Positions 14 to 26,695 of a stretch of DNA of 64,000 nucleotides are shown here, in pieces. This DNA comes from a virus. A program made the position numbers and the translations under genes. Under the pieces are notes generated by a model. That model ran no database searches, had not been told where the DNA came from, and worked only from the letters and a program-made list of their open reading frames with translations. The DNA lies in IMG/VR virus record IMGVR_UViG_3300025000_000061, positions 64,001 to 128,000 of that record. One strand, 5' to 3'. The number at the start of each line of letters is the position of its first letter. The first letter of the stretch is position 1.

Positions 14-3000
14 ATGATTATATGTCATTCACATGTCAAATTTGTAAAACGCCTCAACCAGCAAGAAATAAACCACATAAAGTCTGAAACAAGAGATAGG
101 CAATATATTAATTTAGATGCAAATGGTATTGCTAAAATTTCTTCAGGTTATGAGACAGTTAAGGAACAAAATTTATGTGAAAAATGCTGGATAAAAAGGT
201 TTAATGGTTATAATTCTATACGTTCATAATTAATAATAGAAAGGAGAATAAATATGTTAGAGTGGAAACAAGTAGAATTAGAAGATTCAATAAATGATGA
301 AAATGAACAAGAATACAAAACAGAAAAGAAAATAATTAAAGGTGAAATATATTTCTTTCTGAAAAATGGATATATAGAAACTTCTTATAAAGAATATACT
401 GATGCAGAAAAATCATTTGTAAATATGTATCCGACAGAATATGAAATATATGATTTAATGAGTGGAATAGATTTTGCTGATAATGTTGAATGTGGTGGTT
501 TTATAGATTATGATGGTTCGATTGCACAAATATTTGTGGATGACTATAAAAGCAATTTAGGTATTTGGGATCATGGAATACATCAAGGGAAATTTTGTTT
601 AGGGCAATATGATTTTAGAAAGTTATGTGAAAAATATAATATCGAAGTTAATTGGGCAAATAGATAATACATATATACTAGATATAGTAAGCATGTAAGA
701 GATATTCTACTATATCTAGTATTAAAAACAACACAAAATCAGGCTTTTGTCACAATATTTAAGAAAGGGGAGGAATTATCTTGGAAAACAAATATCCACT
801 TAAAGAATGTTATGAATGTAAATTTAATTATTGTTGGATTGATTATGGTGATTGCAAATTTATTGAAGGTTGAATTTATTGAAGGTTGTATATCAAAATA
901 TAAATATAGTTTATCAATTTTAGATTAAATTTAATAGGAGGAGAAAATTATGCAAAAATATAGAAAGATACCTGATATTATTCTAGTAGAAATTTATAAA
1001 CTAGGAATGGAAGATGGATGGACAATTGAGTATTCAGGATTTTATTCTTATTGTAAAGAATTTAAGACAAGACAAGAATGTTTGGATTTTATTAAAAATG
1101 ATGAAGGTAAATTAGATTGTTATTCGGAAGATAGAGAATTAGATATTATATATGAAGATCCTATGCCATTTATTAAAACAACTGAAACTGAATATGATGT
1201 AAAAGAAGGAGATTATATTATTGTAGATGATAAAGGTAAAAAGTTACGTGTTGTTAAGAAAGATATATTTGAAAAGACTTATGAATTAATTGATAAATAA
1301 AAATTAAATATAAGGAGAAATAAAACTATGATAGGTAAATGTGATGTTTGTGGAAAAGAAGAAGAAATTTATGTACGTTCTTCAACTATGGGTGCAATTA
1401 GTTTTGCCTATTGCAAAGATTGTTTACAAAAAGGTTTAGAACCTTACAATGCTGTAGTTGCTTATATTTCTTGTGTTGGTAGATTTCCAGATGATATTAA
1501 TGAAAATTATCAAAATTATGTTAGAAATATTTTAAAGGAATTAGGTATTAGTGAAGAACAATTTATTAAAGATGTAGATAAAATGAATGCTGAGTATCCT
1601 TATTAGGGATTAAGAAAGGAATTTTATATGAACAAATACGAATATAAGATAGAATTTAATTGCAAGAGTAATGAATTACAAAATATTATTGATAAAATAA
1701 CAAATATAATCAAACATGAATTATCTCAACATATAGAAAATATTATGCCTACATTTACAGTTTTAGAAGAAAATGAATTAAGGTATTACGTAAATATTTC
1801 TTATGATGGATTAACTGTAACACAAGAAGAAAAAGAAATACCAATTGATCATCATGTTAATTATGCATGTTGGGATAGAAGTGGTTATGGTGGAGTATAT
1901 GCATATTCAAATAAAAGTATGGAACATGCAGAAGAATTAGCAAGAAAATGTTTTAAGCAAGGAGCAGGGTGTGTTAATTAATAAATATTTAGGAAAGGAG
2001 AAAATATGATAGTTAAAAAGTTTATGGATGTGCCTGAGTGGATTTTAAAATGTGTTGATTATTAAAAATAATTTAATGTTAAAAGTGAGGTGATAATTTG
2101 AATAATATAATTAAACAAATATTAAATGTCATTGGTGATCATGAAGGAAGTAAATTCACTTTAACTATTTGGCCTCCAGATGAGATATACATATCAATTT
2201 ATGAAACAGACGTATTAATTGAAATTAATAAGAAAGAAAAATGTGCTTATGTTAATACTGAAACAATGGAACATCATTTAACTTCAAGTATGTTAGATGA
2301 ATTAAGTCAAATTATTAAAATAATAGATAATAATATTGATGTAGTTTTAGGTTGTTTATAAAACAATAAAATAAAAGGAGAGATTATTATATGAAAAAAT
2401 ATAATTCTGAAATGTGGGGAAAGTTAGGAGAGTGTATTTATCTTAGATTTACTCCTAATTATGTCAAAAAAACAACTGGAAAAGATGCAGAAATTAAATT
2501 TTATTTAGCTGATGATTTTGATAAAAAATTTGGTGGTATGTCCTCTGTTCCTATTGAAGTAGCAGAAGATGTTGAAGGAAAATATGAAGCAGTTTGCGAA
2601 TATGGTATTGAGATTCGTTAAATAAAAAAAGTATATACTATATATTGTAGTTGACTATTATTTTGACTACAATATATAGAAAAATATTAAGATCAAATCT
2701 GAAATTTATTAAAATATTAACTATATTAAAGGAGATGGTTTATTATGACAGTTAGCAAACCTGTTAAAATAGAAACAGAGATTGAAGATTTAACTACGGG
2801 ATGCACTTATATTTACAAAGGAACATTTATTGAGGATTGTAGAAAATATTTTCTATCACTATTTTATGGAAATAGACCTCATAAAATACTTTGGATTAAT
2901 CATTTATAAAATATAAATATAAATATTTTGTAATAAAATTAAAGGAGATAAAATATTATGAAATCAATATTTCAAAAACCAGTACATGAAAGAATTTACT

Positions 3001-3837
3001 ATGTTTATAATTACAGTGATGGTTCTGCATGTGTGAATTATGATGATAAATTCAAAGAACATATAAATATTTATGAAACAGATAAAGAATTTGAATTAAA
3101 TGAAGGAGAAAAAATTTGCATTGAAAGAGAACCACTTACTATTAAAGAAATTATAAAAAGTGTTGATGATAATAGTATTATTTATATTACAAGAGAAATT
3201 GAAAAGATTGAAGATTTAGAATATAAAACTAAAATTGAAACAGAAGTAGAAAATATAAATAAAGAAAATAAAGAATATAAAGAAAAAGATAGAGAAAAAG
3301 AAAAAATAAAAGAGTTTGATAAATTTAAATTAGAAATGCAAAATAAATATTCATTTAAAAAGTACAAATATGGATTTATTGCTTCAGTTGTATTAAGTTT
3401 ATATTTACTAATTAAAGTTATGTAAAAATTAATTTTAAAGGAGAGAAATTATTATGTACTTTATAGAAAATCAAGAAGAATTAATTGGTAAAACAATTGC
3501 CTATGTAAACATGAATCAGTTTGCAGAGCGTATTTTAATTGCAACGACTGACGGAGGAATCTTAACAGTTTCTCAAGAATCGGATGAATATAATACAGAA
3601 ATAGAAATTCATAGTAAAATAAATACTAAATATCATATTCTAAATTGTAAAAAACATAATAGATATATTTATGAAAATTTAATAAAGTATGGAGTATTTA
3701 CCGAAGAAGAATATAATGAATTTGTTGATGAACACAAAAGGAAACAACAAGAACAAGAGAAATTAAGATTAGAAAGACAAAAACAATTAGAATTAGAGCA
3801 ATATTTAAAATTGAAAGCTAAATATGAGAATAATTAA
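14..3837 (+). CDS. Cluster of small hypothetical phage genes (14-229, 254-667, 950-1300, 1328-1606, 1628-1981, 2098-2361, 2391-2621, 2744-2908, 2958-3425, 3454-3837)
   Basis: Each has an AGGAG-type RBS 6-12 nt upstream; 950-1300 carries the common phage motif GDYII...KKDIFEKTYE. Confidence 0.75.
675..722. promoter_or_regulatory. Paired NrdR-box-like palindromes
   Basis: ATACTAGATATAGTAA (675) and CTACTATATCTAGTAT (707), 32-bp period. Confidence 0.6.
728..755. repeat. 28-bp 11-6-11 boundary site
   Basis: ACAACACAAAA-TCAGGC-TTTTGTCACAA. Confidence 0.7.
781..928 (+). pseudogene. Small Cys-rich ORF truncated by a 16-bp tandem duplication
   Basis: GGAGG RBS, TTG start at 781; AATTTATTGAAGGTTG at 857-872 and 873-888 creates TGA; removing one copy restores the frame to TAA at 926-928. 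Confidence 0.6.
2635..2682. promoter_or_regulatory. Paired NrdR-box-like palindromes
   Basis: ATACTATATATTGTAG and CTACAATATATAGAAA, 32-bp period. Confidence 0.6.
2687..2714. repeat. 28-bp 11-6-11 boundary site
   Basis: TTAAGATCAAA-TCTGAA-ATTTATTAAAA. Confidence 0.6.
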
Positions 3838-3856
3838 AGGAGAAAAACAAATATAA

Positions 3857-4330
3857 ATGAGTAATTTAACTTGGGATGAATATTTCATATCTATCGCATA
3901 CATAGCATCATTAAGAAGTAAAGACCCTAAAACCAAAGTAGGTTCATGTATAGTCAATCAAGATAATAGAATTATTAGTACAGGATACAACGGTATGCCA
4001 AATGGATGTGATGATACTCAAATGCCCTGGGAAAGAGCAGATGGTTTAAAAGATAAAAATTGGTATGTGGTACACTCAGAGTTAAATGCAATATTACATA
4101 GTAAAGTAGATTTAGAAGGATGCAAAATTTATGTTACTCTGTTTCCATGCAACGAGTGTACTAAAGCATTAATACAGTCAGGAATTAAAGAAATAATATA
4201 TTTGTCTGATAAATACAAAGATAGAGAACAAACTATAGCATCTAAATTCATGTTAGATAATGCAGGAATTAAGTATAGAAGGCTAGTGTCTGATGTTAGT
4301 TTTGAAGTTAATTTAAAGGTTATTGAGTAA
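3857..4330 (+). CDS. dCMP deaminase
   Basis: HSELNAI and PCNEC zinc/catalytic motifs; GYNG motif. Confidence 0.95.
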   Translation: MSNLTWDEYFISIAYIASLRSKDPKTKVGSCIVNQDNRIISTGYNGMPNGCDDTQMPWERADGLKDKNWYVVHSELNAILHSKVDLEGCKIYVTLFPCNECTKALIQSGIKEIIYLSDKYKDREQTIASKFMLDNAGIKYRRLVSDVSFEVNLKVIE

Positions 4331-4338
4331 AATGATGG

Positions 4339-4367
4339 TTGACAAATAGTTAACAGAATGATAAAAT
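4339..4367 (+). promoter_or_regulatory. Sigma-A promoter (extended -10)
   Basis: TTGACA-17-TAAAAT with AGAATGA before the -10. Confidence 0.8.
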
Positions 4368-4389
4368 AATAAAAGGAGGATAATTATTT

Positions 4390-4608
4390 ATGTTGAATTT
4401 AAATTTACAGTTAGCAAAAGAAATTATTATTAAACAAAATGATGATGGTACACATAGTATTCAAGTAAAAATGGATGTATATGACTAAAATACAAATGAA
4501 TATATAGAAGGAAATTTTATGTTTGCAAAAACAGTAATAAATTTAGATAAAATGGATATAAAATGTTTGGAAGGTATTGATGATAATTTATATACTGTGC
4601 AGTTTTAA
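4390..4608 (+). pseudogene. Small ORF interrupted by an in-frame TAA (4486-4488)
   Basis: AGGAGG RBS and ATG at 4390; the frame continues 39 codons after the TAA to a stop at 4608. Confidence 0.55.
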
Positions 4609-4775
4609 TGAATTGAAATTTAAAATAATTAATAAGGAGGATAAATACTATGTCATTTAAGTTATCAGAAAAATATCTTAAAAGAAAACAAGAAGAATAT
4701 GAATTAAAATATGTTACATTCAAAGGTAAAGAAATACATATCAGTTAAATAAAAGACAGATCGGTAACTTCGGAA

Positions 4776-6752
4776 ATGAAATTTGAAATGAGAATAAATT
4801 CATATGCACAAGATGATCTACCACCTAAATTAACTGATGAAGCATTAATTAATACTGCAAAATATTTTATGTCTCAATGTTCAAGACCAAAATTTCCATG
4901 TACTACTTATGATGAATCTTTGATACATAAGATTTTACCAGAGTTAATTAAAAGATTGGAAGAAAGATTATAAATATAACGTAAAAGGAGAATAAATTAA
5001 AGTGAAATTAATTGAAAAATTACTTGAACTTAATAATGGGAATCAATTTAATGCAGAGTGTGACTGTCCATATAATTATCATAATGGTGAAATACCAGAA
5101 AATACATTTACACCTTATTGCGATGATGATGATGGTAGTGGTTGTGAAAGGTGTCATAATCAAGAATTAATAGATTGAAATAAATAGTAGGATTTATTAT
5201 GAAAAAGAGGAGGAAGTTAAATCAACTATGAGTAAAAAAGATAAAATTATGGAGTTAAAAATAAAGTCTTGCTATTCAATAGGTTGCATAATGGAAGTTG
5301 TTACTGCTATTAATGAATCTAAACTATCTTGTTTTGTTGAAAATAAATTAGACAAAGATAGTAATTATGTTTTGAGTATCTATAAATAATATTAATACCA
5401 ATGATAAGATTTGTAATAAAATTTAGGAGGATTATTATAAAAAGATTTAAAAATCTTGATGAATTAAATTTATATCTTGAAAATATGTATGGTTACGATG
5501 AGGAAGAATCTATTTATATGCTTTTAGAAGATTTCGAAAAAATTAAAAAAGCATTAGAACATATAAATCGTGTTGTTCAAAATGTTGAAAATATTATTGT
5601 TTAAGTTTAGACCAAAGAATCGTTTGATTTAAAAATAAAGGATGTGATAATTTGATTGTAAAACTAATATTATCATTTTTATTTATGACAGTAATGATTA
5701 TCGGAATAATATTTAGTATTGTTGGTATTAAATTGATTTGCTATTTTATTGGTGAATATTATAATGATAAATTAAATGAAAATATTAAAAATAAGATTAA
5801 AATAATAAATAATATAATTAACAAAATAGCAAAAATATTTGATATTATAATCACTATAATAATTGCAATTAGTTTTATAGGAATATTAATACTTATAGGT
5901 TATACAATTTTATTTGCTAAATAAATTATGATTAAAGTTACGTTTGAACACAATATTTCAAAAAAGGAGATTAATATGAGTGATTATATATCAACAAAAT
6001 GTATTAGATTACATACGCAACATCAAGATTTAGAAAGTATATTAAGTTATTTAGGTAAAAGTGAATTATATAATAATCTAAAAGAACAAGATAATTTAGA
6101 CATATATGAAATCAATGAAATATTAGAAAAAGAAAATATAAGAATAATAGAATATAAAAATATATATTACATTGATATTATTTTGCAAAATGAATATGGT
6201 GAGCAAGAAGTGAGTTTATATATATCATTTAATGAGATTAATAATATTATTATTGATGATTTTATTGATAAATACGGTAATGTAGAAATATTAGATATAA
6301 TTATATTAGCACATAATTGGTATAATTGTTGTGAAGAACCTTATAGTTGTTAAATAGAAAAGGAGAGTTAATATGGCAAACACAGATAAATTACAAAAAT
6401 TATTAAATAACTTAACTAAAATTAATTGTCCAATGCTAGAATGTAAATATTGTTTCATTAACGAAGAAAATGATGATTGGCCTGATTGTGAAAAACCCAC
6501 AACAATCAAAGATGGGTATCTTAAATGCCTTGGTTTTAAAGAAATAACTTGCCCATTTTTTGAATCGAGATAAGGAGGATATATTATGGCAGATGTAATG
6601 TTTAAAATTTATAATCATTATGAAAAAGATGGTTTATATTTTATAGAAACAGATTATGGTGAGTTATATACAGAAAATAAAAAAGATTATGATAAAACAA
6701 TTGAAGATGGGTTTATTATTCTTAAATTAGATGAATACGATTATGATATATA
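4776..6752 (+). CDS. Array of small hypothetical genes (4776-4973, 5002-5178, 5228-5389, 5437-5604, 5652-5924, 5976-6353, 6373-6573, 6587-6752)
   Basis: Short ORFs, most RBS-led; starts of two track ORFs revised to 5437 (ATA) and 5976 (ATG) from RBS position; 5652-5924 has two TM segments. Confidence 0.65.
5175..5953. repeat. Four consecutive 28-bp boundary sites separating single genes
   Basis: 5175 TTGAAATAAAT-AGTAGG-ATTTATTATGA; 5392 TTAATACCAAT-GATAAG-ATTTGTAATAA; 5606 TTTAGACCAAA-GAATCG-TTTGATTTAAA; 5926 TTATGATTAAA-GTTACG-TTTGAACACAA. Confidence 0.7.
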
Positions 6753-6779
6753 ATTTTAAAAATTAAAGGAAATAATCTA

Positions 6780-7391: not shown

Positions 7392-7405
7392 GGTAGGATT
7401 AGTAT

Positions 7406-8147: not shown

Positions 8148-11100
8148 TTGATTGAAAAAATATACAAATATATAAATAAAATAACCAATAGTTTAAAAAT
8201 ACACTTCTTAGATAGTGATGTAAAACAATTATTAATTAATAGAGGTTATATTCCTATAGAAATTATTTCAAAAAATAAAGAATGCTATCAAGAAACATAC
8301 AATGAATATATGTGGACTAATTATTGGACATATTCCTATGAAATAAAAGTAAAAAATATAGATAATTGCAAGTATTATATAATAACCGCTATTCATACAT
8401 TTAGCAGTAAAAATGATAGTGATAGTAGATATTATATAAAAGAAATAAAAGATATTAATGGTGTAATTAAAGATAATAAAACATATTATAATATTTGAAA
8501 GGGAAAGGGGGAATATAACCATGATTGAAAAATCTTGTTATACTTGTATAAGTGCTGGCGTATCAAAAGAAAAGTATCCTTGTGATAAGTGCCACAATCA
8601 GAATAATTGGAGATATAGATATAGTGTTCAATCGTTGTGTTTGGTTGGAGTATGTTTAATAGCTGTTGGGATTATTGTTTTATTGTAAATATAAATAAAT
8701 AATAAAAAAGGAGATAAATACATATGAACAAATACAATGATGTAGATTGTTGCTTTGATTGCGTAAAACAATTTAATGATGAATTATGTAAAAATGATAT
8801 GTATTGTAAAACAAAAAATAATTGTAGTACAAATCATTGTAGTCCTGGTGCTTGTAAAAATTTTGAGAAGAAAGAAGCAATGGTAACTATCACAAAAGCA
8901 GAATATGAAGAATTAATAAAGGATAGTAATTTGTTAGAAGCACTTAGATGTACAGGAGTAGATAATTGGGTAGGATATAGTAGTGCATATGATCTTTTAA
9001 ATGAATAGGATGAAGAGGAGTAAATACATATGAAAGTAAAGATATTGTCTGGTCATAATAAAATTGGTGAAATAGTTGAAGCGAAGAGATATTGCGAATT
9101 AAATGAAGAAGAATTAGAAGAATCATTAGGTGGTTATGGATGGGAAAATGTAAATGGAATATTTATTCAACATAAAAGTAATGAATGGATATATATGTTA
9201 AATGAAGAAGTGGAGATTGTGGAAGAATAATTTTTAGATACTACATATAGTGGATGCAATAATAAAATACCACTATATGTAGATAAACTTTAGAAAGGAA
9301 AGAAAATGAAAAAATACAATGAACCATATCAAGTAAATCAAATATGGGTATCTGAAACTAACCCTGAGCAAGATTTCTTTATTTATTGGGTAGATTATGA
9401 TAGAGTAAGTGATAATGCATATGATTATAATTATTATTCACACATACTTACTACAAAAATAAACAAAGAAGCATTTGAAAATTATGTTGCTAAAAAATTT
9501 AAATGTAATTCATTTGCTGACATAAAAAGAGAAAGCATATATCCTTATTCATGGTGGGGAGAGTATAAACCTAGATCATTAAAACAATTAGTAAAAAAGT
9601 ATAATATAAAATTATTAAAAACTCTTAATTATGAAGTAAATGATTATTGCAATATAGGTAATTATAGTTATAATTATAGTGTTAAAGATATTGAAAAAGT
9701 TATAGGAGAGGTAAGAAAATAAAATAGAAAGGAGATAATATATGGAAATTGGAGATAAGGTATTATTTTCAACAGGAAAAGAAGAATTAAAAAGTAATAT
9801 TGGAATAATCATTGCCTTAAAAAATAATAAATTCATAATTCTTAATAGAAGTTATAATTGTAATACTATTTATACTATTGAAGGGAATTATATTGATAGT
9901 ATAACTAATGTAAATAGAATCAGAGAAGATATAAAAACATATTATACACCTCAAATAGAAGAATTAAAATCTAAATTAAAAACTGTAACATCTGAAGAAA
10001 AAATACAAGAACGAATCAATAAATACAATGATATTAAAAATAGGATTATAGTAAATTGTGAAAGATTAATTGTTTGTTCAGATGACGATGAATTTGATAA
10101 TCGACTAAAGGAAATAGATAAACTGAAGAAACAATTATTTAGCATTGATTTAGAATGTGGTGATATTATCCGAAAAGAAAATGGTAGGATTAAATATGAA
10201 ATTAAAAAACTTGAAATCGAAATGAATGGTAGATTAAATAATATTAATGATGAAAGAATTATTAAAGCATTTGAGTTTTAATAAAAAATACATAAAACAT
10301 TAGCTAGGAGGTAATTTTATGGACTTGGAAACTGCTTGTAAGAATTATGAAGAAGAGTATCATAGAAATGTTGAAGAATTACATCAATTAAAAACACAGG
10401 TACAAAATATGATTGAAAATTTATTTATTGATGGATTCACTACAAATACTAAAAAAATGATGGTTGAGATTTTAAAAAAATGTAGGTAAATAATGTTAAA
10501 ATAAAAGACACATTTGATCGTAAAATCAGAAAGGAATAATATATGAAAATAGCAGAAACATATACATACTATGTTATTTACAATATAACTAAAGAAGAAT
10601 ATTACTCCGATATTGTAGATGTAGGACATTACAGGATTGAATATAAATTTAATAAATTAATTAGTGAAGCAATCCTTTATAATACAAGAAAAGAAGCAAA
10701 TGAAGATATAAGAGAATGGATAAATAGAAACAGTACAGATAAATATATTGTTAAAAAGATTAGATTAGATTATTCTATAAATAATTAAAAAAGAAGAAAA
10801 TAATATGAAAAAATATAAATTAATAAAATCAAAAAACAAAGAAAAAATATTTACTGTTACAATTGAAGCAGATTCAAACGATGGAGATTATATCACAGCA
10901 ACTAGTGATTATAATGAATTAGAATTTGAAGAAATAGTAGATGAATTAATTAGATTAAAGAAATATTATGGTGATTCACATCAATTTGAAGATTTTTATA
11001 ATACTGAATATAATATTGATATTCCATATAGTGAATATGGTAGATGCCATACATTATCTTCTATTGAAATTTATTGTATTGAGAATGGACAATATTATGA

Positions 11101-13282: not shown

Positions 13283-13327
13283 ATTATACTTATATCTTAC
13301 TTTCTTACAATAAGATATAAGTATAAT
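13283..13327. other. 17-bp perfect hairpin after the RNA ligase gene
   Basis: ATTATACTTATATCTTA/TAAGATATAAGTATAAT, 11-nt loop, no U tract. Confidence 0.6.
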
Positions 13328-13345: not shown

Positions 13346-13699
13346 ATGTGTGATTTAGACAAGAGATTTAAAGAAGTGCAAGAATTAAGGGATGAATTAA
13401 ATACATATCATACAGAATTACAAAGTAATCTAAGTGTTGTTGATAAAGAAATAGTAGATTTGGAACATTATATAGAATTTTATAATTTTAATGCATCTCA
13501 AGGATTTAAAGCATATAAAATGTTGCAGGAAAGATTAATTAAAAGAAGAGAGATTAAAAAATCAATTGAGAAATGCAATATTATATGGAATGGTAATGTA
13601 AGAGATTTCGCAATAGGGAAAAGTATAGACAAGCAAATGAAAAGCATTGAAAATAAGAAATATACTGCTAGAGTATTAAAGGAATTATTTGAGAATTAA
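13346..13699 (+). CDS. Conserved helical phage hypothetical protein
   Basis: DLEHYIE...NASQG...RREIK pattern; RBS. Confidence 0.6.
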   Translation: MCDLDKRFKEVQELRDELNTYHTELQSNLSVVDKEIVDLEHYIEFYNFNASQGFKAYKMLQERLIKRREIKKSIEKCNIIWNGNVRDFAIGKSIDKQMKSIENKKYTARVLKELFEN

Positions 13700-15755: not shown

Positions 15756-17732
15756 ACATGTTAAACAAACAAAATATAAATGATGAAAAGATTATGCAGT
15801 TAAAATTTCAGATTCAAGAGAAGAAGAAAAGTTTAAAAACTAAGAAAAGATTTACACCTTTAACAAATTGTAATTTAGAATTGGATGGAGTAAGATATAA
15901 TATCCAAGTTCCGAACAAGGAAATATTAACTACTTTATTGGTTAAATTGAATATGTATAGGTTGTCTATTATTGATCCATATTTAGAATTAATAGATGAT
16001 TTTATTATTTCTGGATATACTGTTGATGAATGGATTAAGGATATTAAATTAAAATTGGAAATTTTGAGGTATGAGGAAGAGGATAGAAAGTTGAAGGAGT
16101 TAGAAAGGAAACTTCATCAATTGCTCAGTGTCGAAAAGAAAGTAGAATTAGAAATTGGTGAGATTGAAAGTTTAATTGGTGAATAGTAAATAAATAAATT
16201 ATACCATATAGGGTATGATAATAAATAAACATACCTTATATAGTATAAAATCAAATGAGGTGAATTGATATAGATAATAATATTGATGGATATGCAAAAT
16301 TAATTACTAATCAAAAAGGTGAGTTATTATCTATTATTGAATTAAATTGTAATAATAAAGCATTTCAACAATATTTAGAGGATTCTCCAATAGAATATTT
16401 TAAGGATATAGAATATGATAATAAAAATTCTGCCATTTTAATAACATTTAAATTTAAAAGTGAAATATCATATTCTTATGAGGGCATAGAAGAGTATGAA
16501 GATTGGGTAGAAATAATTGATGAAATATTATTAGAATCTAATTATAAAGATAAGATTATTAATAATGTGAAAGAGTTATTAAATATTTTAACAAGTATTA
16601 AAAACAATACAATTGTATTTCAAAATAATTATTATGAATATAATAATTATTATTTTGAAACAGCAGGAGAGTTAGAGAAATATATTTATGAACAACTTTA
16701 TGATTTTATAAATGATTATGAAGAATATTTTGAAGATGACGATATAATAAATGTGAAATTACATAATGAAATAATGGATTATATTAATAATTATAATTTT
16801 TATTTTAAACCTATTGATATAGAATTAACAGGAAACAATGGTGTAGATTATATTAAGATTACTCAAAATTATAATCAATTTAATAATAATACTGTTTTTA
16901 TTGAAATAGGTTATTGTTGTGTTGTTATTTTTAAGAAAGTTGTTCGTGTTGAGTTTTTGACAGGATTATTTAATAAGATTTTTGTTGAAGGTATTTTAAA
17001 TATTAATGAATAAAAACAATAGCAAATTTATGTTTCATTGTGAATTTAATAGAAGGAGGGAAAATTTTTATGTACACTTATATTATATGTATGAAAAATG
17101 GCAAAGAATATAAAATCAAATGTGATTTTAATTTTAAAGATTTAATTGATAATATAATGTCGAAAAATCAAAATGAAATTAAACTATTACATTTTAATGT
17201 AGTAGATTCCAAAGATAGAATTGTTGCTATAATAGGTGGTGAGGTATCAAGTATTGAGTATTTTGTTAAAATTAATTAGTAAGATTAAAATGTTGTAGAA
17301 AATAATAGTTGACAAGATGGTATTAGAATGATAAAATAATTATAAGTAAAAAAATAAAATGGAGGAATACATATTATGAAAAAGAAAACTATGAGAGTTA
17401 ATATCCAAATGAAGGATGGTTCAGAACTTAAACAAGTTGATATATTTAAAAATAGAGAATTAGGAGATAGTATAGTTTCTACTAAATTAGAAATTGAAAA
17501 ATTGCTTAATTATGAGAATGATAAAAATGTATATTTTGGTGGGAAATATATTCAAGGTGGAATTATTCCCAAGCAAATAAGTAAGTATGAAATTATTGAA
17601 GATGAAAAAGAAATATCATTAGTATTGTTAAATTTTATTAAAGAAAATAATCATGTGTATAATTTTAATTCAAATGATGTAATGAATTTTATAATTGAGA
17701 ATAGACAAGAAATATTAAAAATATTGAGGTAA
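15746..17732 (+). CDS. Hypothetical genes (15758-16186, 16270-17013 with ATA start, 17070-17279, 17376-17732)
   Basis: RBS positions; 16270 extends the 16567 ORF by 99 open codons. Confidence 0.7.
17016..17043. repeat. 28-bp boundary site (degenerate)
   Basis: ACAATAGCAAA-TTTATG-TTTCATTGTGA. Confidence 0.45.
17309..17337 (+). promoter_or_regulatory. Sigma-A promoter (extended -10)
   Basis: TTGACA-17-TAAAAT, AGAATGA. Confidence 0.8.
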
Positions 17733-17746: not shown

Positions 17747-17793
17747 ATACTATATTTAGTAATACATATTTAATAAAATACTAGATATAGTAT
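17747..17793. promoter_or_regulatory. Paired NrdR-box-like palindromes
   Basis: ATACTATATTTAGTAA and ATACTAGATATAGTAT, 31-bp period. Confidence 0.6.
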
Positions 17794-17820
17794 TAATATA
17801 AATGCTGAATTTTATAATGA
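17793..17820. repeat. 28-bp 11-6-11 boundary site
   Basis: TTAATATAAAT-GCTGAA-TTTTATAATGA. Confidence 0.65.
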
Positions 17821-17848: not shown

Positions 17849-19150
17849 TTGGAGTTAATTTATGAGACGGATAATGGAAAACTTGTTCATGGTGATAATA
17901 TTGAAGTAATGAAAGAATATGAAGATGATACATTTGATAGTGGTATTTCAGATTTTCCTTATGATTTAAAATTTATGGGTAAGAAATGGGATAATACAGG
18001 ATATTTTTATAAATGGTGCAAAGCAAGAGCAATTCAATTATATAGAATAATTAAACCAGGAGGATATGTTTGTATATTTGGTCATCCTAAGACAAATCAT
18101 AGAATGAAATGTGCTTTTGAAGATGCAGGATTTCAAATTGTAGAAGAAATTGACTGGATTTTTGGTACTGGATTTCCTAAGAATCAGGATATAGGAAAGT
18201 TGTTTGATAAAAAAGCAGGAAAAGAAAGAGAAATTATAGGTAAATATAAAACACCAGAAGGTGGTCAAATTTTATCTACTTATAATAATTGGCAAGATGA
18301 AGATTTAAAAAACGGAGAGCAAGAAAGAAGGATACCTAATATTACATTACCTACAACAGAACAAGCACAAAAATGGAACGGATGGAAAACGTCAGGTTTA
18401 AAACCAGCACATGAACCTATTACAGTATTTCAAAAACCATTAGAAGGCACATATATAAATAATATAAATATACATAATTGTGGTGCAATGAATATTGATG
18501 CTTGTAGAATTCCTACTTCACAAGATGATAAAGATATTATCAATGCAAAAGCATCTAAAAATCCAACAACTAACTATTCAGATAGTGAAAATAAAATATA
18601 TGGTGCATATGCAGAAGATAAATCAATGCCAGCAAATGAGATAGGTAGATTTCCAGTTAATATTATTCTTGATTCTTTTATGGGAGAAATATTAGATGGT
18701 CAAAGTGGGATTACAAAAAGTGGAAAAGTAAAAGAAAATAAAAATGCATACGAAGGTAAATCTAATACAGGATTTTTAAGAGGGATTACTACAATGCAAA
18801 ATCAACATGGAGATTCAGGTGGTGCGAGTAGATTTTTCTTAAAGATTGATACAGATGATTTTGTACCATTTTATTATTGTGGGAAAGCAACTAAAAAAGA
18901 AAAGGGTGAAGGGAATACTCATGTTACTGTTAAACCTAAACAATTAATTAAATGGTTAATAAAATTAGTTACTCCTATTGATGGTAAAACAATTGATATT
19001 ACAGCAGGAAGTGGAACGCATGGATTAAGTTGTGAAGAATTAAATAAAGAAGAAGGATATAATTTAAAATGGATTAATATTGAGTTGTTGAATACTGAGA
19101 AAGAACCATACTGTGAAATTGCAAAAAATAGGATTAAAAGTGTAATATAA
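17849..19150 (+). CDS. N4C/N6A DNA methyltransferase, beta class
   Basis: Catalytic SDFPY near the N-terminus; H.TVKP and DITAGSGT (SAM-binding) near the C-terminus. Confidence 0.9.
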   Translation: MELIYETDNGKLVHGDNIEVMKEYEDDTFDSGISDFPYDLKFMGKKWDNTGYFYKWCKARAIQLYRIIKPGGYVCIFGHPKTNHRMKCAFEDAGFQIVEEIDWIFGTGFPKNQDIGKLFDKKAGKEREIIGKYKTPEGGQILSTYNNWQDEDLKNGEQERRIPNITLPTTEQAQKWNGWKTSGLKPAHEPITVFQKPLEGTYINNINIHNCGAMNIDACRIPTSQDDKDIINAKASKNPTTNYSDSENKIYGAYAEDKSMPANEIGRFPVNIILDSFMGEILDGQSGITKSGKVKENKNAYEGKSNTGFLRGITTMQNQHGDSGGASRFFLKIDTDDFVPFYYCGKATKKEKGEGNTHVTVKPKQLIKWLIKLVTPIDGKTIDITAGSGTHGLSCEELNKEEGYNLKWINIELLNTEKEPYCEIAKNRIKSVI

Positions 19151-19171: not shown

Positions 19172-19219
19172 TAACTATATGTAGTATGTATTATAATTTT
19201 AAACTACTACATATAGTAA
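19172..19219. promoter_or_regulatory. Paired NrdR-box-like palindromes
   Basis: TAACTATATGTAGTAT and CTACTACATATAGTAA, 32-bp period. Confidence 0.6.
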
Positions 19220-19223: not shown

Positions 19224-19251
19224 TCATTACAAATTCGCAGTTTTATTCAAA
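19224..19251. repeat. 28-bp 11-6-11 boundary site
   Basis: TCATTACAAAT-TCGCAG-TTTTATTCAAA. Confidence 0.7.
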
Positions 19252-19282
19252 ATATTATCACAAAAAAGGAGAAATTAAATTT

Positions 19283-19696
19283 ATGTATTCAATTCAATCA
19301 GAAATAACATTTAATTCAGCTCATTTCCTACAAAATTATAAAGGTAAATGTAGTACAATTCATGGTCACAATTGGAAAGTTATAGCAGAAGTGCAATCAG
19401 AAAAATTACATAATGATATGGTTATGGATTTTAAGGAATTAAAAAATTATTTAAAAGAGATAGAAAAATTATTTGATCATAAATTAATTATTAAAAAAGA
19501 CAGTCTAAAAGATAATACTATTCAATGTTTAAAAGATGAAGGTTTTGAATTGGCAATTGTTGATTTTAATACAACAGCTGAAAATTTTGCAAAACATATC
19601 TATTACATATTAAAAAATAAATATAATTTAAATGTAAGGAAAGTAAATATATATGAAACTGAAAATAATAAAGCATCTTATTGGGAAGGAAATTAA
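19283..19696 (+). CDS. queD: 6-carboxytetrahydropterin synthase
   Basis: FNSAHFL, CxxxHGH, TAEN motifs. Confidence 0.93.
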   Translation: MYSIQSEITFNSAHFLQNYKGKCSTIHGHNWKVIAEVQSEKLHNDMVMDFKELKNYLKEIEKLFDHKLIIKKDSLKDNTIQCLKDEGFELAIVDFNTTAENFAKHIYYILKNKYNLNVRKVNIYETENNKASYWEGN

Positions 19697-19699
19697 ATT

Positions 19700-20338
19700 A
19701 TGAATGTAATTGAAAAATACATAAGTGTTGAAGGAGAGGGAATATTTCAAGGTTATCCAACTGTATTTATAAGATTTACAGGATGCAATTTAAAATGCTC
19801 ATATTGTGACAGTTTATATGCACATGATGTAGAAAATAGTAGTAAATATAAAATTACTAATATATTAAGTTATATATTAAAAACAAAAATAAAAAAAGTT
19901 ACACTAACTGGTGGAGAACCTTTATGTCAAGACAATATTTATAAATTAATTAATATATTACTATATAATAAAATTAATGTGAATATAGAAACTAATGGCT
20001 CTATATTAATAAACAATATAAATAATAATGCAGTTATAACTATGGATTACAAACTTCCATCAAGTAATATGGAATCATTTATGTTATTAGATAATTTAAA
20101 GTTACTTAAATTAGATGATGTATTAAAGTTTGTTTGCTCAGATGAAAATGATTTAAAAACTGCATTAAATATTATTAATAAATATACTCCACAATGCAAT
20201 ATATATTTTAGTCCTGTATTTAACACTATACAACCAAAAAGAATAGTTGAATTTATATTAGATAATAAATTATTTAATTGTAGAATGCAATTACAAATCC
20301 ATAAATATATTTGGGGCAAAGAAACGAGAGGTGTTTAA
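19700..20338 (+). CDS. queE: 7-carboxy-7-deazaguanine synthase (radical SAM)
   Basis: GEG...FIRFTGCNLKCSYCD, TGGEP, IETNG, QIHK. Confidence 0.93.
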   Translation: MNVIEKYISVEGEGIFQGYPTVFIRFTGCNLKCSYCDSLYAHDVENSSKYKITNILSYILKTKIKKVTLTGGEPLCQDNIYKLINILLYNKINVNIETNGSILINNINNNAVITMDYKLPSSNMESFMLLDNLKLLKLDDVLKFVCSDENDLKTALNIINKYTPQCNIYFSPVFNTIQPKRIVEFILDNKLFNCRMQLQIHKYIWGKETRGV

Positions 20339-20341
20339 TTT

Positions 20342-20980
20342 ATGAAAAATGACAAATGTGTTGTTGTATTATCAGGTGGTCAAGATTCAACAACTTGCTT
20401 ATTTTGGGCAATAAAAAATTTTAATTATGTTGAAGCAATAGGTTTTGATTATGACCAAAAACACAGGTTAGAACTTAGATGTGCAAAAGAAATATGTGAT
20501 AAACAAAGTATTAAATATACTGTACTTGATTTAAGTTTACTTAATCAGTTGACAATTAATGCACTTACAAGAGATGATATTATTCCTGAAATGGTAAATG
20601 GAAAATCTACTGCATTTGTAGATGGTAGAAATCTTCTTTTCTTAACTTTTGCTTCAATTTATGCAAAACAAAAAGGTATAAATAATATTATTACAGGTGT
20701 ATGCGAAACTGATTTTAGTGGGTACTCCGATTGCAGAGATATATTTATTAAATCATTAAATGTAACATTGAATTTAGCAATGGATTATAATTTTGTTATT
20801 CACACTCCTTTAATGTGGTTAAATAAAAAAGAAACATGGGAATTAGCAGATAAATTGGGATGTATTGATATTGTTAAAAATGAAACATTAACTTGTTATA
20901 ATGGAATTGTAGGAGATGGATGTGGTGAGTGTCCGGCTTGTAAATTGAGATTGAAAGGTTATGAAGAATATTTAAAATGA
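20342..20980 (+). CDS. queC: 7-cyano-7-deazaguanine (preQ0) synthase
   Basis: SGGQDS PP-loop, GRN, YSDCR, CYNG...CGECPAC zinc site. Confidence 0.95.
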
Positions 20981-21007
20981 TAAAATAAATAATATTGATT
21001 AAAATAG

Positions 21008-21037
21008 TTGACAAATATATTAATATTGTGTTAAAAT
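21008..21037 (+). promoter_or_regulatory. Sigma-A promoter for the DUF6884/TGT-like unit
   Basis: TTGACA-18-TAAAAT with TG extension. Confidence 0.7.
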
Positions 21038-21065
21038 AAATCAACAAATAAAATATAGAAAGGAA

Positions 21066-21491: not shown

Positions 21492-21709
21492 AAATTAATA
21501 ACAAATGGAAAATAAATAAAGGTGATGATGTGACAATTAAAGCACAGGGTATTACTGTAAAAGGAGATGTTTTATCAGCAGAATATTATGAAGATGGTGG
21601 ATGGTATATTGAATTAATTAATGCTAATGTCCCTGGTGGATATAGTTATTATAAACAAAAATATGATGGTGGAAATGTAGTGAATGTTCAAAAGATGGTG
21701 ATTAATTGA
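21488..21709 (+). CDS. Small beta-rich hypothetical protein
   Basis: AGGAGG RBS; overlaps both neighbours by 4 nt. Confidence 0.7.
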   Translation: MKINNKWKINKGDDVTIKAQGITVKGDVLSAEYYEDGGWYIELINANVPGGYSYYKQKYDGGNVVNVQKMVIN

Positions 21710-22515
21710 TTTTATATGTGTCAAAAACAAATGATAAATTAAACACAAAAGAATTAAATACTGAATTTCTTTCTGAATATTTATGTTTAAATCCTAAATA
21801 TAATGTATCTATTAAAAATCCAAATGTTAAAGTATTACTAGATTCTGGTGCTTTCCAAGATAAAGAAAAAGAAAAAAGATTGTCTTTACAAGAAGCATTA
21901 AATAGACAGTTAAATTTTGAAAAAAAAGTAGGTTTTATATCTGAACGTATCGTTGCCTATGATTATATAGGCAACGTAAAAGAAACTATAGAAGCAAATA
22001 AATTCTTAGTAGAAAAGAGAGAAGAATTAGAACCAAGACAATTAGTATTAATGATTCAAGGAAATACTACACATGATTACATACATTGTTTAGTAGAAAC
22101 TTTATTAATAACGAAATCAGAAGATTGTATAGGATTTGGTGGAGTTGCATTGGCTGGTAGAGAAAATAATACTAAATTTAAATTATTAGATGCATTTAAA
22201 ATTGGATTGCCGATAATTTATAATAGTGGGATAAAAAACATACATATCTTTGGAGTGGGTAGTTTTACAGTATTAAAAGAGATTACTAATATAAAAAACA
22301 TATTTAAACAGTTATATATTGATACTGATGAATTAAATATAAGTTGTGATACTGCTGCTTTTGAAATTAGATCGACAATGGGAAGTGTGATAAATTTAGA
22401 AGAAGAGAAATGGGAAAAGGTTTATACAAAAGCACAAAAATACATAAATTATCATCCAGCAGATTTAACTATAGAAAATATTAATAAAGCATTACAAATT
22501 ATAAGTAAAATATAA
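21706..22515 (+). CDS. TGT-fold transglycosylase (DpdA-like), probably a DNA guanine/7-deazaguanine exchanger
   Basis: LDSGAFQ, YD, IQG, FGG, HIFGVG and SCD match the TGT catalytic elements; no C-terminal CxCxxC zinc site; near queDEC. Confidence 0.75.
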   Translation: MILYVSKTNDKLNTKELNTEFLSEYLCLNPKYNVSIKNPNVKVLLDSGAFQDKEKEKRLSLQEALNRQLNFEKKVGFISERIVAYDYIGNVKETIEANKFLVEKREELEPRQLVLMIQGNTTHDYIHCLVETLLITKSEDCIGFGGVALAGRENNTKFKLLDAFKIGLPIIYNSGIKNIHIFGVGSFTVLKEITNIKNIFKQLYIDTDELNISCDTAAFEIRSTMGSVINLEEEKWEKVYTKAQKYINYHPADLTIENINKALQIISKI

Positions 22516-22516
22516 A

Positions 22517-22544
22517 TCAACATAAAACAGTAGTTTTATAGCAA
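22517..22544. repeat. 28-bp 11-6-11 boundary site
   Basis: TCAACATAAAA-CAGTAG-TTTTATAGCAA. Confidence 0.7.
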
Positions 22545-22592
22545 AATAATAATATAATTAAATAAACAAAATAAACTATAATTAATCTGTCG

Positions 22593-22621
22593 TTTAATGA
22601 GAAAGAATTATATGTTATAAT
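22593..22621 (+). promoter_or_regulatory. Extended -10 promoter for the Mom-like gene
   Basis: TTTAAT-17-TATAAT with TG extension. Confidence 0.55.
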
Positions 22622-22634
22622 AATATTAGGAAGG

Positions 22635-23387
22635 GTGAAAAACATAAAAGTAATTAATATTTCAAAAGAAGAAAAATTAGATAAAAAACTATATACAGTA
22701 AAAAATGTTCCTATGGAGACTGTAAAGGAAATTTGTAAAAACAAACACTATTTACATAGAGTGCCACATATTATTGCTAGTTATGGACTATATAAAAACG
22801 ATTTATTATTAGGAATTATAACCTTCGGTATACCACCAAGTCCTTACTTAATGAAAATATGTGGTGAAGAATATAAAAGTAATGTTTTAGAATTGAATCG
22901 TCTTTGGTGTTATGATGAATCTCCTAGAAACTCTGAAAGTTATTTGATTTCACAAGGTATTAAACTATTAAAGAAAGATAAACCTGATATAAAGATATTA
23001 ATTTCATTTGCAGATACGAGACAAAATCATTTAGGATACATATATCAAGCATCAAATTGGTATTTTACAGGATGGTCTATTCCAGGTGGAGGAAGTATAG
23101 TTATTAATGGCAAAGAGGTTCATCCTAAGAATTTAAACAATAAATATGGGACTAGTGATTTAGAAAAATTAAAAGTAATACTTAATACAGAAAATATTCA
23201 TTATCGTCCAAGGAGTAAAAAATGTAGATATGTATATTTTATTAGTAAAGATAAAAGAGAAAATGCATTATTAAAAACATTATGTAAATATGAAATACAA
23301 AATACATATCCAAAAGAATTTCCGAAAGAAACTGAATATAAGACTCAAAAACAAAAACTACTTGATAAAAATGTAGACGGTTTTTAG
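22635..23387 (+). CDS. Mom-like GNAT DNA adenine-modification enzyme (start possibly ATA at 22644)
   Basis: HYLHR, ITFG.P, ELNRLW, ISFAD..Q.HLGYIYQASNWYFTG signature. Confidence 0.8.
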   Translation: MKNIKVINISKEEKLDKKLYTVKNVPMETVKEICKNKHYLHRVPHIIASYGLYKNDLLLGIITFGIPPSPYLMKICGEEYKSNVLELNRLWCYDESPRNSESYLISQGIKLLKKDKPDIKILISFADTRQNHLGYIYQASNWYFTGWSIPGGGSIVINGKEVHPKNLNNKYGTSDLEKLKVILNTENIHYRPRSKKCRYVYFISKDKRENALLKTLCKYEIQNTYPKEFPKETEYKTQKQKLLDKNVDGF

Positions 23388-23447
23388 ACATAGTTTTGAT
23401 TGGGTTAAATTAAATTAACAAAATGCAAAAATAAATATAAATACATG

Positions 23448-23476
23448 TTGCAAAACCAAAATAATAATGTTATAAT
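23448..23476 (+). promoter_or_regulatory. Sigma-A promoter
   Basis: TTGCAA-17-TATAAT with TG extension. Confidence 0.7.
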
Positions 23477-23508
23477 GTTATTAATAAAATTATTAGGAGG
23501 TTTTAATT

Positions 23509-25110
23509 ATGCAAAAATGTGAAGTATGTGGAAAAGAAACAGAAAATTATTGTATTTGTGATAGTTGTAACTCTGCTTATTGTGTTGAACATATAGGTCA
23601 ATTTAATGAATGTCCTTTATGTGGAAAGGAACATACATTTAAAGAGAATTTTTAAAGTATAATAAAAGGAGTGTTAAATATGAGTTATAAAATTTACATT
23701 GGAGATTCTAAATGCACAAAATGTGGTAAGTCTCATAAGAAAATCTTTGAGATTGATGGTAAACCATACGGATCAAGTTGTGCAAAAGATATTATTGGTA
23801 AAGAATTAACTGCTCCTGTATGGTTGTATGAATTAGCAGAACAACATGTGCAAAGTAGAATAAAAAGCAACGATATTGAAAATGTCGAAGATTTTGAAGT
23901 TAATTTTTGGAATGAATTGCCTGATGACAAAAATACAATATTGGGTAGAAGTTTTAATAATTTATTTGAGAGTTATATTTATCATAAAACAATCAAAATT
24001 AAAGGAAAATCAGTAAAAGTTGATTGGCAACATGAAATAGTTGGTTATTTGCATAATAGACATGCAGAAATTACATTTAATACAATCAAATAGTTTAAAA
24101 TATGTTAAATTTGGTTTATCACGTTTTTTATCGATCAAATATTCAATTTAACTCACTTATACTTCCATTTGCTATGTAGTATAAATGTCATAATAAAATA
24201 ACGGTTTTGTCACAATATAGGTAAAATTACGCAATATCGTAATGTATCTGATTTTACCCATAATAATGTCAGCAAACCCTTATAATACAAGGGTTAGAGA
24301 GCATTTTTATACTTAAAATAAAAGTATAAAATAAATATTGTGACAAAAGAAAGATTTTGTTCAAACTTTAAAGGAAAAAGGAGGAAATTATGAACAAAGA
24401 ATACATAAAGTTTTTAAATTTTAGAACAGAATTAATTGAATTATTAGATAAGTATAGATACCAAATATCAGGTACAAATCTTGATGATGGCTCAATGAAT
24501 ATAGAAAATAAAAATGGTATTGCTTATATATTAAGAGATTCTTATTCAGATTACGAAGCATTGGATTTTGACTGGAATATATTATCTACAGATTATATAT
24601 TAAATATGTTCCCAGAAGATAATAATTCGCCTATTAAAAATAACAATATTGGTATATTTACTAATAATTATGATAAAGTTTCTATGTTATTTGATGATCT
24701 ATATAATCAAAATAAAGAAAATGTAAAGAGATTCAGAAAGAGCAAAGAAGAAATAAATTTATTATTAGAAGATGATAGATATTTTGTTTGGATTAAACCG
24801 ATAGATAATTCAAGAGGTCATAGATGTTCAAAAGTTGTTTATATTGATAGGAATTTAACATTAAATGAGTTACAATATAATGTTATGCCTATTTGTTGTT
24901 ATTGTAAAAGAGAAGATGTAAAGGTGTTTTAAATAAATATAAATAAAAATAAGGAGGAAAATAGTATGGTAATGAAACCTGAAGAATTTGATAGTTTATA
25001 TTTATCATTTTTAAATGGTAATGAATTAACTAGAGAGGAAGTTAAAAATTTGTTTGATACTTTTGGAGAATTAATAAATGAGTATAAACGATTATTGGAA
25101 GAATTTAATA
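23509..25110 (+). CDS. Hypothetical genes (23509-23655 Zn-finger, 23680-24093 with CxxC, 24390-24932, 24966-25110)
   Basis: RBS-led ORFs. Confidence 0.65.
24188..24365. repeat. Two 28-bp sites bracketing a gene-less structured spacer
   Basis: 24188 TCATAATAAAA-TAACGG-TTTTGTCACAA; 24338 TTGTGACAAAA-GAAAGA-TTTTGTTCAAA. Confidence 0.72.
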
Positions 25111-25128
25111 AAACCGTAGGAGGGTAAT

Positions 25129-25704
25129 ATGAAAAGAATTGATGTAATGACTGATATTGAAACATTAGGTAAAGATTCTGATTCTACAATATTTCAAATA
25201 TCTGCAATAGCTTTTAATATTGAAAGTGGAGAATACATAGATAAATTTAATATGATTGCTGATATTGAAAAGAATAAAATAATAAATGTATCAGGTAGCA
25301 CAATAAAATGGTGGTTAAATACCGATAAAGAATTATTAACAAAACTACTTAATAATGGAGAATATTCAAGTGAAGAAATACTTAAACAATTTCATATATG
25401 GTTAAATTCATTAAGTGAAGATATGAAGAATGTTTATTTATGGGGTAATGGTATTCTATTTGATAATAAGATGTTACAATGTCAAATGAAAAATATCAAT
25501 TTAGATTATCCTATATTTTATAGGAATGATAGAGATATGAGAACATTAGTAGAATTAGCAAGTCATAAGGTAGGGATTCAAACAGAAAAGGAATTTAGAG
25601 ATAAATATAAAAATCCAGATTTAATTGCTCATGATGCTTTTGATGATGTCAAGGGACAAATTGATATTGTTATTAAATGCCATAATATATTGATGAAAGG
25701 ATAA
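25129..25704 (+). CDS. DEDDh 3'-5' exonuclease (Rv2179c/ExoVIII-like)
   Basis: DIETLG, WGNG..FD, HDAFDD motifs. Confidence 0.88.
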   Translation: MKRIDVMTDIETLGKDSDSTIFQISAIAFNIESGEYIDKFNMIADIEKNKIINVSGSTIKWWLNTDKELLTKLLNNGEYSSEEILKQFHIWLNSLSEDMKNVYLWGNGILFDNKMLQCQMKNINLDYPIFYRNDRDMRTLVELASHKVGIQTEKEFRDKYKNPDLIAHDAFDDVKGQIDIVIKCHNILMKG

Positions 25705-25711
25705 TATAATT

Positions 25712-26695
25712 ATGAACAATTATAAACTTATGGAAGAATATATTCAATGGAGAAAAGATACTGGTAAATTTAGACATGAATTAAGAGATATAATTGTAAA
25801 TGATAATGGTGTAATTAAAACAGAGAAGAAGATGGCATGTGTTATAAATACTTCACCTGAAGATTGGAAAGAGTTTTGTGAAGATAGAGATATAGAATAT
25901 GAAGGTGAAATGAAATTGTTGGCAATGTGTTAGTATGTAGAAAATCTTGACAAATTATCAATAGTAATTACTATATGTAGTATTAAAAATATATAAAAAT
26001 ACTACATATAGTAATAATATCATGATCAAATTCCTCTTTTATATTAACTTGAAAGGAGAATTATGAAAAAATTATTAATCATTTCTTTACTAACTACTTT
26101 TTTATTAACTGGGTGTGGTATGTCTAATAGTAATAATACAAAACAAATGGCATATTTTAAAGATACAGGTGTTGTTATAAAAGATTCAATGGATAGAGAA
26201 TACCATATAATTAAAGACCCAAATGATTATTTGTATTTTCGTACTGATGTAGTATATTATAGTATTTCGCCTGTATTAGATAAAGATGGTAAATATACAA
26301 AAGATATAAATACAATTAAAGAGATGTACAGAATAGAAAAATAAAAAGGAGAAAAAATACATATGATAACTCAATTACCATGTGGCTGTTCAACTATACC
26401 TATCAATAAATTTGCTAAAGTTAAAGAAATATTATTAGCAGGAAAAGCAATTATAACTGATAATCCAAATTATGAAGAATCAGAAATAGTTATGTTCCAA
26501 TTAAAAGATGGAAATGTATTTTCAGTAGTTATGTTTTCAGATGATACTCAAGGAACTGTTAATTTTGATATGAAAAAAGCATTAAATGTTTGTAAAGAAT
26601 TATGGGATGATGGTTATGATTTTTGCTATGGAGAGCATATGAATTTTGTTATTGGTGAAGAAAGTAAAGATAAGAAAGATGAAAATAATAGTTGA
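25712..26695 (+). CDS. Hypothetical genes 25712-25933, 26063-26344 (lipoprotein) and 26363-26695
   Basis: 26063 has signal peptide MKKLLIISLLTTFLLTGC with a lipobox. Confidence 0.7.
25968..26014. promoter_or_regulatory. Paired NrdR-box-like palindromes
   Basis: TTACTATATGTAGTAT and ATACTACATATAGTAA, 31-bp period. Confidence 0.6.
26020..26047. repeat. 28-bp 11-6-11 boundary site
   Basis: TCATGATCAAA-TTCCTC-TTTTATATTAA. Confidence 0.7.

Follow-up and report, generated by a model that had tools for sequence, protein, structure and literature searches.

Results

NrdR-type box pairs between phage genes

The DNA analysed here, a window of 64,000 nucleotides, comprises bases 64001-128000 of the phage record IMGVR_UViG_3300025000_000061, and our subject is a set of tandem 16-bp box pairs in it that resemble operators of NrdR, a bacterial repressor of ribonucleotide reductase (RNR) genes that senses the levels of DNA precursors. 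The record (IMG/VR; 151,782 bp, 24% GC, CheckV completeness 82%) is that of a large, SPbeta-like phage; its + strand carries nearly all genes, and blastn of a phage collection found no close relative. An earlier note, made from the letters of the window alone, had listed six pairs, and all six are present, with boxes starting at 675/707, 2635/2667, 9238/9270, 17747/17778, 19172/19204 and 25968/25999, each pair intergenic and ahead of + strand genes. A box is 16 bp with a 10-bp core, and the 21-22 nt between the cores of a pair correspond to 31-32 bp from centre to centre. Scanning the whole genome with the strict pattern CWANATNTWG-N20-23-CWANATNTWG, which encodes the conserved NrdR positions, returned seven pairs, the seventh at genome position 36854, beyond the window. 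The reversed pattern, our control, had no match in the genome, and 100 Markov shuffles contained no pairs. The pairs of the window are:

675..722, no strand: NrdR-type box pair 1, cores CTAGATATAG / CTATATCTAG, core spacer 22 nt
2635..2682, no strand: NrdR-type box pair 2, cores CTATATATTG / CAATATATAG, spacer 22
9238..9285, no strand: NrdR-type box pair 3, cores CTACATATAG / CTATATGTAG, spacer 22; no adjoining 28-bp dyad
16201..16246, no strand: degenerate pair, T11 and A6 lost, spacer 20; falls outside the NrdR definition
17747..17793, no strand: NrdR-type box pair 4, cores CTATATTTAG / CTAGATATAG, spacer 21; upstream of a DNA methyltransferase (MTase) gene
19172..19219, no strand: NrdR-type box pair 5, cores CTATATGTAG / CTACATATAG, spacer 22
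25968..26014, no strand: NrdR-type box pair 6, cores CTATATGTAG / CTACATATAG, spacer 21

The two boxes of a pair are inverted copies of each other, as the note had seen: perfectly so in six of the seven pairs, with one T/G position in the pair at 17747. The pair at 16201-16246 is likewise present and degenerate: each of its boxes retains five of the six conserved positions and its spacer measures 20 nt, while compensatory changes on both arms preserve its hairpin fold. In a relative (L250/L011), the orthologue of pair 4 has other cores and another linker. A perfect inverted repeat of 17-18 bp with a 7-11 nt loop (ATTATACTTATATCTTA...) also lies at 13283-13327, intergenic before the gene at 13346, and is not NrdR-like.

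Single boxes outside pairs occur at chance level (19 observed, about 19 expected). Bacterial genomes hold 1-5 strict pairs per 1.3-5.1 Mb, against seven per 0.15 Mb in the phage, and five related IMG/VR contigs (G001-G005), some of which share 85-97% protein identity with the window, carry 2-6 pairs each and no match to the control pattern. SPbeta and phiCD211 contain no strict pairs. The pairs are thus far too frequent for chance, and their layout is conserved across the phage family, which we represent below by a set of 23 box pairs (46 cores).

The boxes resemble bacterial NrdR operators

A consensus for the NrdR box was reportedly established by Rodionov and Gelfand in 2005. Known NrdR sites are made up of a pair of partly palindromic 16-bp boxes (PMC13584703, PMC12051234, PMC9110341), in which C4, A6, A8, T9, T11 and G13 are highly conserved (PMC13584703) and which are separated by a linker of 15-16 bp, placing them about three helical turns apart from centre to centre (PMC12051234). 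In the phage, these six positions are kept in 14 of 14 boxes, and the linkers measure 15-16 bp in all seven pairs (core spacers 21-22 nt); across the 23 family sites the core spacers are 20-22 nt. When bacteria were searched, with one genome per species, for exactly the cores paired at sites 5 and 6, at least 120 loci came back; their spacers had a mode of 20-22 nt, and some of the loci lay in genomes of 65-70% GC. At the ten of these loci that were tested, the next gene was nrdD six times, nrdJ once (Clostridium moutaii), nrdI once (Streptococcus suis) and nrdR once, in a metagenome-assembled genome (MAG), so that nine of the ten stand at nrdD, nrdJ, nrdI or nrdR; the tenth adjoined a tRNA synthetase. 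Since the same core pair stands beside nrd genes in bacteria, these sequences serve there as NrdR operators. On every sequence criterion that could be applied here, then, the phage elements agree with NrdR-type tandem boxes, as the earlier note had proposed.

Two observations from bacterial genomes concern such sites more generally. A dispersed repeat, present in dozens of copies both in Anaerobacillus arseniciselenatis and in a MAG related to it, contains CTATATGTAG...CTACATATAG between conserved flanks, the spacer being 20 nt (ttgcgttaaaccgctcgcaa-like); the repeat looks from its sequence to be a family like miniature inverted-repeat transposable elements or repetitive extragenic palindromes, built around an NrdR-like site, and is a caution for the core-pair search. 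In a Clostridium genus (genomes G011-G029), the linker of one conserved NrdR pair covers the ribosome-binding site (RBS; GGGAGGAA) and the second box of that pair starts right at the ATG of the gene that follows, so that nature apparently offers a case in which NrdR boxes work downstream of the promoter.

No NrdR encoded by the phage was found, and TIGR00244 matched only the ATP-cone of nrdJ. A 41-aa open reading frame (ORF) at 48241-48366 has a CxxC...CxxC zinc ribbon with a weak match to PF22811, the NrdR zinc ribbon (11 bits, E 0.08); we considered it as an NrdR, but it is without the arginine-rich stretch and is probably unrelated.

A 28-bp dyad and an MrpR-like protein

Most pairs are followed by a 28-bp dyad of 11-6-11 structure with a consensus near TCATGAyAAAA-N6-TTTTrTCATGA. 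In the window these dyads are:

728..755, no strand: 28-bp 11-6-11 dyad, 8 nt past the box-2 core of pair 1; then an RBS and a small ORF from 781
2687..2714, no strand: 28-bp dyad, 7 nt past the box-2 core of pair 2
17793..17820, no strand: 28-bp dyad, 2 nt past the box-2 core of pair 4
19224..19251, no strand: 28-bp dyad, 7 nt past the box-2 core of pair 5
26020..26047, no strand: 28-bp dyad, 8 nt past the box-2 core of pair 6; best consensus match, 22/22

Five window pairs had been said to adjoin such a site, and five do: four at 7-8 nt from the box-2 core and the pair at 17747 at 2 nt, with none at the pair at 9238. Across the family, the dyad starts 7-8 nt past the box-2 core in 19 of 23 pairs, always on the gene-proximal side and with the RBS next. 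The genome holds about 20 or more dyads; 31 sites, most of them intergenic, score 19 or higher, where shuffles have about 10. The composite of a pair and the start of a dyad, which we call a module, had no match in 401 Clostridia genomes.

The single window pair that lies apart from a dyad has a counterpart in a relative. On contig G004 (L245) the dyad TTAAAATAAAA-gacaca-TTTGATCGTAA comes immediately after the NrdR pair; this phage has that dyad at 10496, separated from pair 3 by three extra genes (9306-10489). Both junctions around these genes share AGAAAGGAA at the RBS (window 9284-10540), and the three genes look like a cassette insertion. At 24188-24365, two 28-bp dyads lie near a AAACCCTT-N7-AAGGGTT palindrome where there is no NrdR pair; the upstream motif that partners the dyad seems to vary.

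One phage protein of 354 aa (genome 47187-48251) is homologous, over nearly its full length, to MrpR/YopR, the master repressor of SPbeta, and matches PDB entries 8a0a and 8bj6 at E 6e-15 over residues 20-322. MrpR is a protein of integrase fold whose recombinase activity has been lost; in SPbeta it binds a repeated element, SPBRE, at about ten promoters (PMC10516654). The phage protein has no match to PF00589, the Pfam integrase family, and does match a PHROG integrase family. Judged by this precedent, the 28-bp dyad looks more like an operator than a recombination site and, by analogy, is probably the operator of the phage's MrpR-like, integrase-fold repressor.

The earlier note had also raised the possibility that NrdR is an architectural accessory factor for recombination, as ArgR and PepA are at cer; it would then bend DNA beside a dif-like core and help to build a synapse. 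The 11-6-11 architecture of the 28-bp site is indeed dif-like, its distance from the pair is fixed, and cassette-like indels occur at the modules. No canonical tyrosine recombinase (PF00589) was found in the record at E <= 1, however, the integrase-fold protein that the phage does encode is homologous to a protein whose recombinase function is lost in SPbeta (PMC10516654), and the genome would be deleted if it had more than 20 directly oriented sites that were active. We therefore consider a role in recombination highly improbable.

The apposition of pair and dyad also raises another arrangement, in which NrdR, bound 4-5 bp from the dyad, would act as a partner of the MrpR-like repressor, stabilising it or competing with it, so that the dATP/ATP state would govern whether some of the early cassettes stay silent in lysogeny and perhaps whether lysogeny is chosen at all. 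The 7-8 nt geometry of 19 of the 23 sites and the presence of an MrpR homologue are what such a partnership would call for, and it has been suggested that specific MrpR-SPBRE binding in vivo may need extra factors (PMC10516654). Against this, more than 20 dyads of the genome stand without NrdR pairs, SPbeta itself lacks a strict pair, and the binding of the MrpR-like protein to the dyad is itself something that we infer. We regard the partnership as an unlikely proposal; if true, it would give SPbeta-like phages a nucleotide-sensing, SOS-independent input.

Hairpins or double-stranded protein sites

The pairs can fold as stable stem-loops (-15 to -20 kcal/mol, z -2.8 to -6.3), and their cores are perfect inverted copies in 19 of the 23 family pairs. 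They might on this account be RNA or single-stranded DNA hairpins, serving as a processing or stabilising element, a protein-assisted terminator or a PeSL-like homology patch for gene shuffling, with their likeness to NrdR sites incidental. Such a role would suit the pair at 17747, whose T/G position keeps a G-U pair on the + strand, and the decayed pair at 16201, where changes on both arms preserve the pairing, as well as the gene content of relatives, which differs exactly around the modules. A hairpin arm needs no near-palindrome, however, yet the six NrdR positions are kept in every box, and the distance from box to box does not change, whereas loop lengths range from 13 to 18 nt. Complementarity between boxes is 20-23/23 inside the core and drops to chance level just past the 16-bp boxes on both sides, and information content across the 23 family sites is confined in the same way: 1.5 bits per position in the boxes, 0.4-0.9 in the 3-nt flanks and about 0.2 in the linker.

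Pairs that do not form a good stem argue in the same direction. Among IMG/VR loci the direct arrangement of cores (40 loci) is as common as the convergent (36) and the divergent (39), and of 35 unique sites with direct pairs, 25 have retained the spacing of 20-23 nt. Nor do the sites have the features of an intrinsic terminator or a PeSL, which would be a G+C-rich stem with a U-tract, or an adjacent sigma-70 promoter: no U-tract follows the pairs, terminator scans gave no terminator-like match at the sites, a sigma-70-like promoter lies only at pair 6, and no Rfam family matched positions 1-30000. A protein site is thus a better fit than a simple hairpin to the constant spacing, the edge-limited complementarity, the box-confined information and the direct pairs, and a purely structural explanation appears to us quite unlikely.

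Downstream genes, promoters and nrdJ

The genes downstream of pairs are mostly small ORFs without assigned function. Those with clearer assignments, together with the phage's own class II RNR, are:

3857..4330, + strand: dCMP deaminase (PF00383, E 1e-25), fourth gene after pair 2
17849..19150, + strand: N6/N4 DNA MTase, after pair 4
19283..20980, + strand: queD (PTPS), queE-like radical SAM protein and queC, after pair 5
55738..58050, + strand: phage class II RNR (nrdJ), with ATP-cone, RNR alpha and RNR-II insertion domains

Also downstream of a pair lies a small lipoprotein-like ORF, ahead of ligase, macro-domain and poly(ADP-ribose) polymerase (PARP)-like genes. The latter form a row at 26773-29778, encoding an ATP-dependent DNA ligase, a macro-domain protein and a protein with WGR and PARP catalytic domains, with a perfect TTGACA-17-TATAAT at 26715 ahead of it, and look like a phage ADP-ribosylation and DNA-repair module.

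Strong TTGACA-17-TATAAT promoters lie at 4339, 11906, 14648, 17309, 21008, 26715 and 29851, and none lies at the modules. Pair 6 has TTGACA at 25947 followed by a 16-nt spacer and TACTAT, with the -10 inside box 1. We also tried the dyad arms, or TATAGT in box 2, as -35 and -10 elements, and rejected them, as the spacings do not fit across sites. Modules start 10-20 nt past the upstream stop codon, without a terminator, and most of them are therefore probably read through from upstream promoters; one such transcript probably runs from the promoter at 17309 through a gene, pair 4, the MTase gene and pair 5 to queDEC.

The nrdJ gene has a strong sigma-70-type promoter (TTGACA/TGnTAAAAT, about 55447-55475) and, in agreement with the earlier note, no box pair in its promoter region. 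Inside its coding region lies a marginal NrdR-like pair (55879-55921: CAAAATATAG, 23 nt, CAAGATATGG), with the six conserved positions in both cores, W12 off in box 2 and no dyad symmetry; about 0.02 such pairs are expected in the window by composition. A 336-aa ORF with an HNH_3 endonuclease motif (58007-59017) overlaps the 3' end of the 770-aa RNR ORF, which had no match to the Pfam RNR barrel domain, and a homing-endonuclease element may split the RNR gene.

An nrdJ gene outside NrdR control is what one would expect if the pairs were mainly decoys that soak up host NrdR as the phage genome multiplies, derepressing host nrd operons and raising the supply of deoxynucleoside triphosphates (dNTPs). 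Seven consensus-grade pairs per phage genome, where a host chromosome has 1-5, would suit this purpose, as would the constitutive type of the nrdJ promoter and the many downstream genes unrelated to nucleotides. A decoy needs no fixed position, however, yet the pairs always lie upstream of genes, 7-8 nt from the dyad and on one side only, a layout that relatives keep while the linkers diverge. Titration of NrdR is a likely by-product, because seven strong sites, hundreds once replicated, lie on a replicating genome; as the main function of the pairs we think it improbable.

Discussion

We propose, with moderate confidence and from sequence comparison, that the pairs are operators for host NrdR in a composite cassette with the 28-bp dyad, and that they gate downstream genes including the MTase gene, queDEC and the dCMP deaminase block. 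The phage would thereby probably tie accessory and DNA-modification genes to the dNTP state of its host. The earlier note had offered three roles for the boxes: accessory factor for recombination, decoy, and control of downstream cassettes by the nucleotide pool. The last fits best, because the pairs always lie upstream of genes, at a fixed distance from the dyad, and are conserved in relatives while linkers drift; the first finds no support.

We envisage the following mechanism. While dATP is plentiful, an NrdR tetramer loaded with ATP and dATP would sit on the pair and block transcription that starts at the cassette, or reads through it, into accessory and DNA-modification genes. Once dATP is drained, by phage replication or by stress, NrdR would come off the pair, freeing the downstream genes. 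In the modules NrdR and the MrpR-like protein would thus act together, NrdR as a repressor or roadblock; we favour this role because most of the modules appear to be read through from upstream promoters. NrdR binding, repression by that binding and the identity of the affected promoter are all elements that we infer from sequence. In Streptococcus pneumoniae, lytic infection strongly induces the NrdR regulon of the host (PMC6755750), and a signal that a phage could use therefore exists.

Several findings weigh against this proposal. None of the seven pairs occupies an RNR promoter or precedes an RNR gene. RNR genes are also absent from the 58 genes that adjoin such pairs in IMG/VR loci, which leaves the bacterial sites as the basis of the link to NrdR. 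The genes that do follow the pairs are mostly the small, function-unassigned ORFs noted above. A sigma-70-type promoter overlaps a box only at pair 6, and the linkers and flanks of the 23 family sites contain no conserved -35 or -10. Finally, just one of the 46 cores is a perfect palindrome, and the asymmetry of a box is mirrored in its partner, whether it falls in the inner or the outer half-site. Together with the dyad symmetry of 19 of the 23 pairs and the compensatory changes at 16201, this appears to point to an added pairing pressure beyond NrdR binding. Templated quasi-palindrome correction could cause the mirrored asymmetry, as could a two-fold symmetric tetramer that prefers symmetric DNA, and the pairs may have a secondary structural role. 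A preference of the NrdR tetramer for inner over outer half-sites was rejected as the sole cause of the symmetry, as convergent and divergent arrangements are equally common.

Among known systems, the cer and psi sites carry accessory sequences for ArgR, PepA and ArcA that serve XerCD recombination. They resemble the phage modules in having the site of a host DNA-bending regulator on one side of a dif-like core, and differ from them in that no recombinase and no recombination junctions were found here and in the extent of the accessory region, which is 42 bp in the phage and about 180 bp in cer/psi. PeSL cassettes of T4-type phages (PMC2839356, PMC4122927) likewise place an element capable of forming a stem-loop together with a second motif between genes of a plastic region, and gene indels between close relatives fall at the phage modules too. 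PeSLs combine a terminator-like stem-loop with an early sigma-70 promoter, however, whereas the modules combine a putative host-repressor operator pair with a motif not recognisable as a promoter.

Another comparable case is the MrpR (YopR)/SPBRE system of SPbeta (PMC10516654). The phage encodes an MrpR homologue, and in it, too, a short intergenic dyad is repeated ahead of genes, about 20 or more times where SPBRE occurs at about ten promoters. The motifs differ, SPBRE being 15 bp and the phage motif a 28-bp 11-6-11 dyad, and the phage dyad is a putative operator. Because the authors of that study suggested an additional factor for MrpR specificity, NrdR becomes a concrete candidate for this factor in SPbeta-type phages.

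A further likeness is to NrdR operators at bacterial RNR promoters (PMC9110341, PMC12051234, PMC13584703), with which the phage pairs share the two 16-bp boxes, the six conserved positions and the 15-16 bp linker, and to the sites upstream of bacterial nrdD, nrdJ, nrdI and nrdR, whose cores are identical to those of the phage. The phage sites differ in lying away from RNR genes, in numbering seven copies in 152 kb while the phage's own nrdJ has no pair, in being mostly fused to a second, phage-specific dyad, and in being nearly all dyad-symmetric with non-palindromic cores. Literature on NrdR with phage, prophage or bacteriophage yielded no description of NrdR boxes at phage non-RNR genes; thus, while the kind of site is itself known, the apparent composite of an NrdR-type pair with a phage-specific dyad, and its use at non-RNR genes, is new. 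Almost all bacteria have NrdR, and the DNA motif that it recognises is conserved from phylum to phylum, so that by borrowing it a phage acquires a portable means of sensing dNTP supply and the state of replication. Should the sites work as we propose, replicating phage genomes could titrate a global repressor, phages would wire accessory and DNA-modification genes rather than reductase genes to host nucleotide pools, and a host sensor could be combined at fixed geometry with the operator of a phage repressor.

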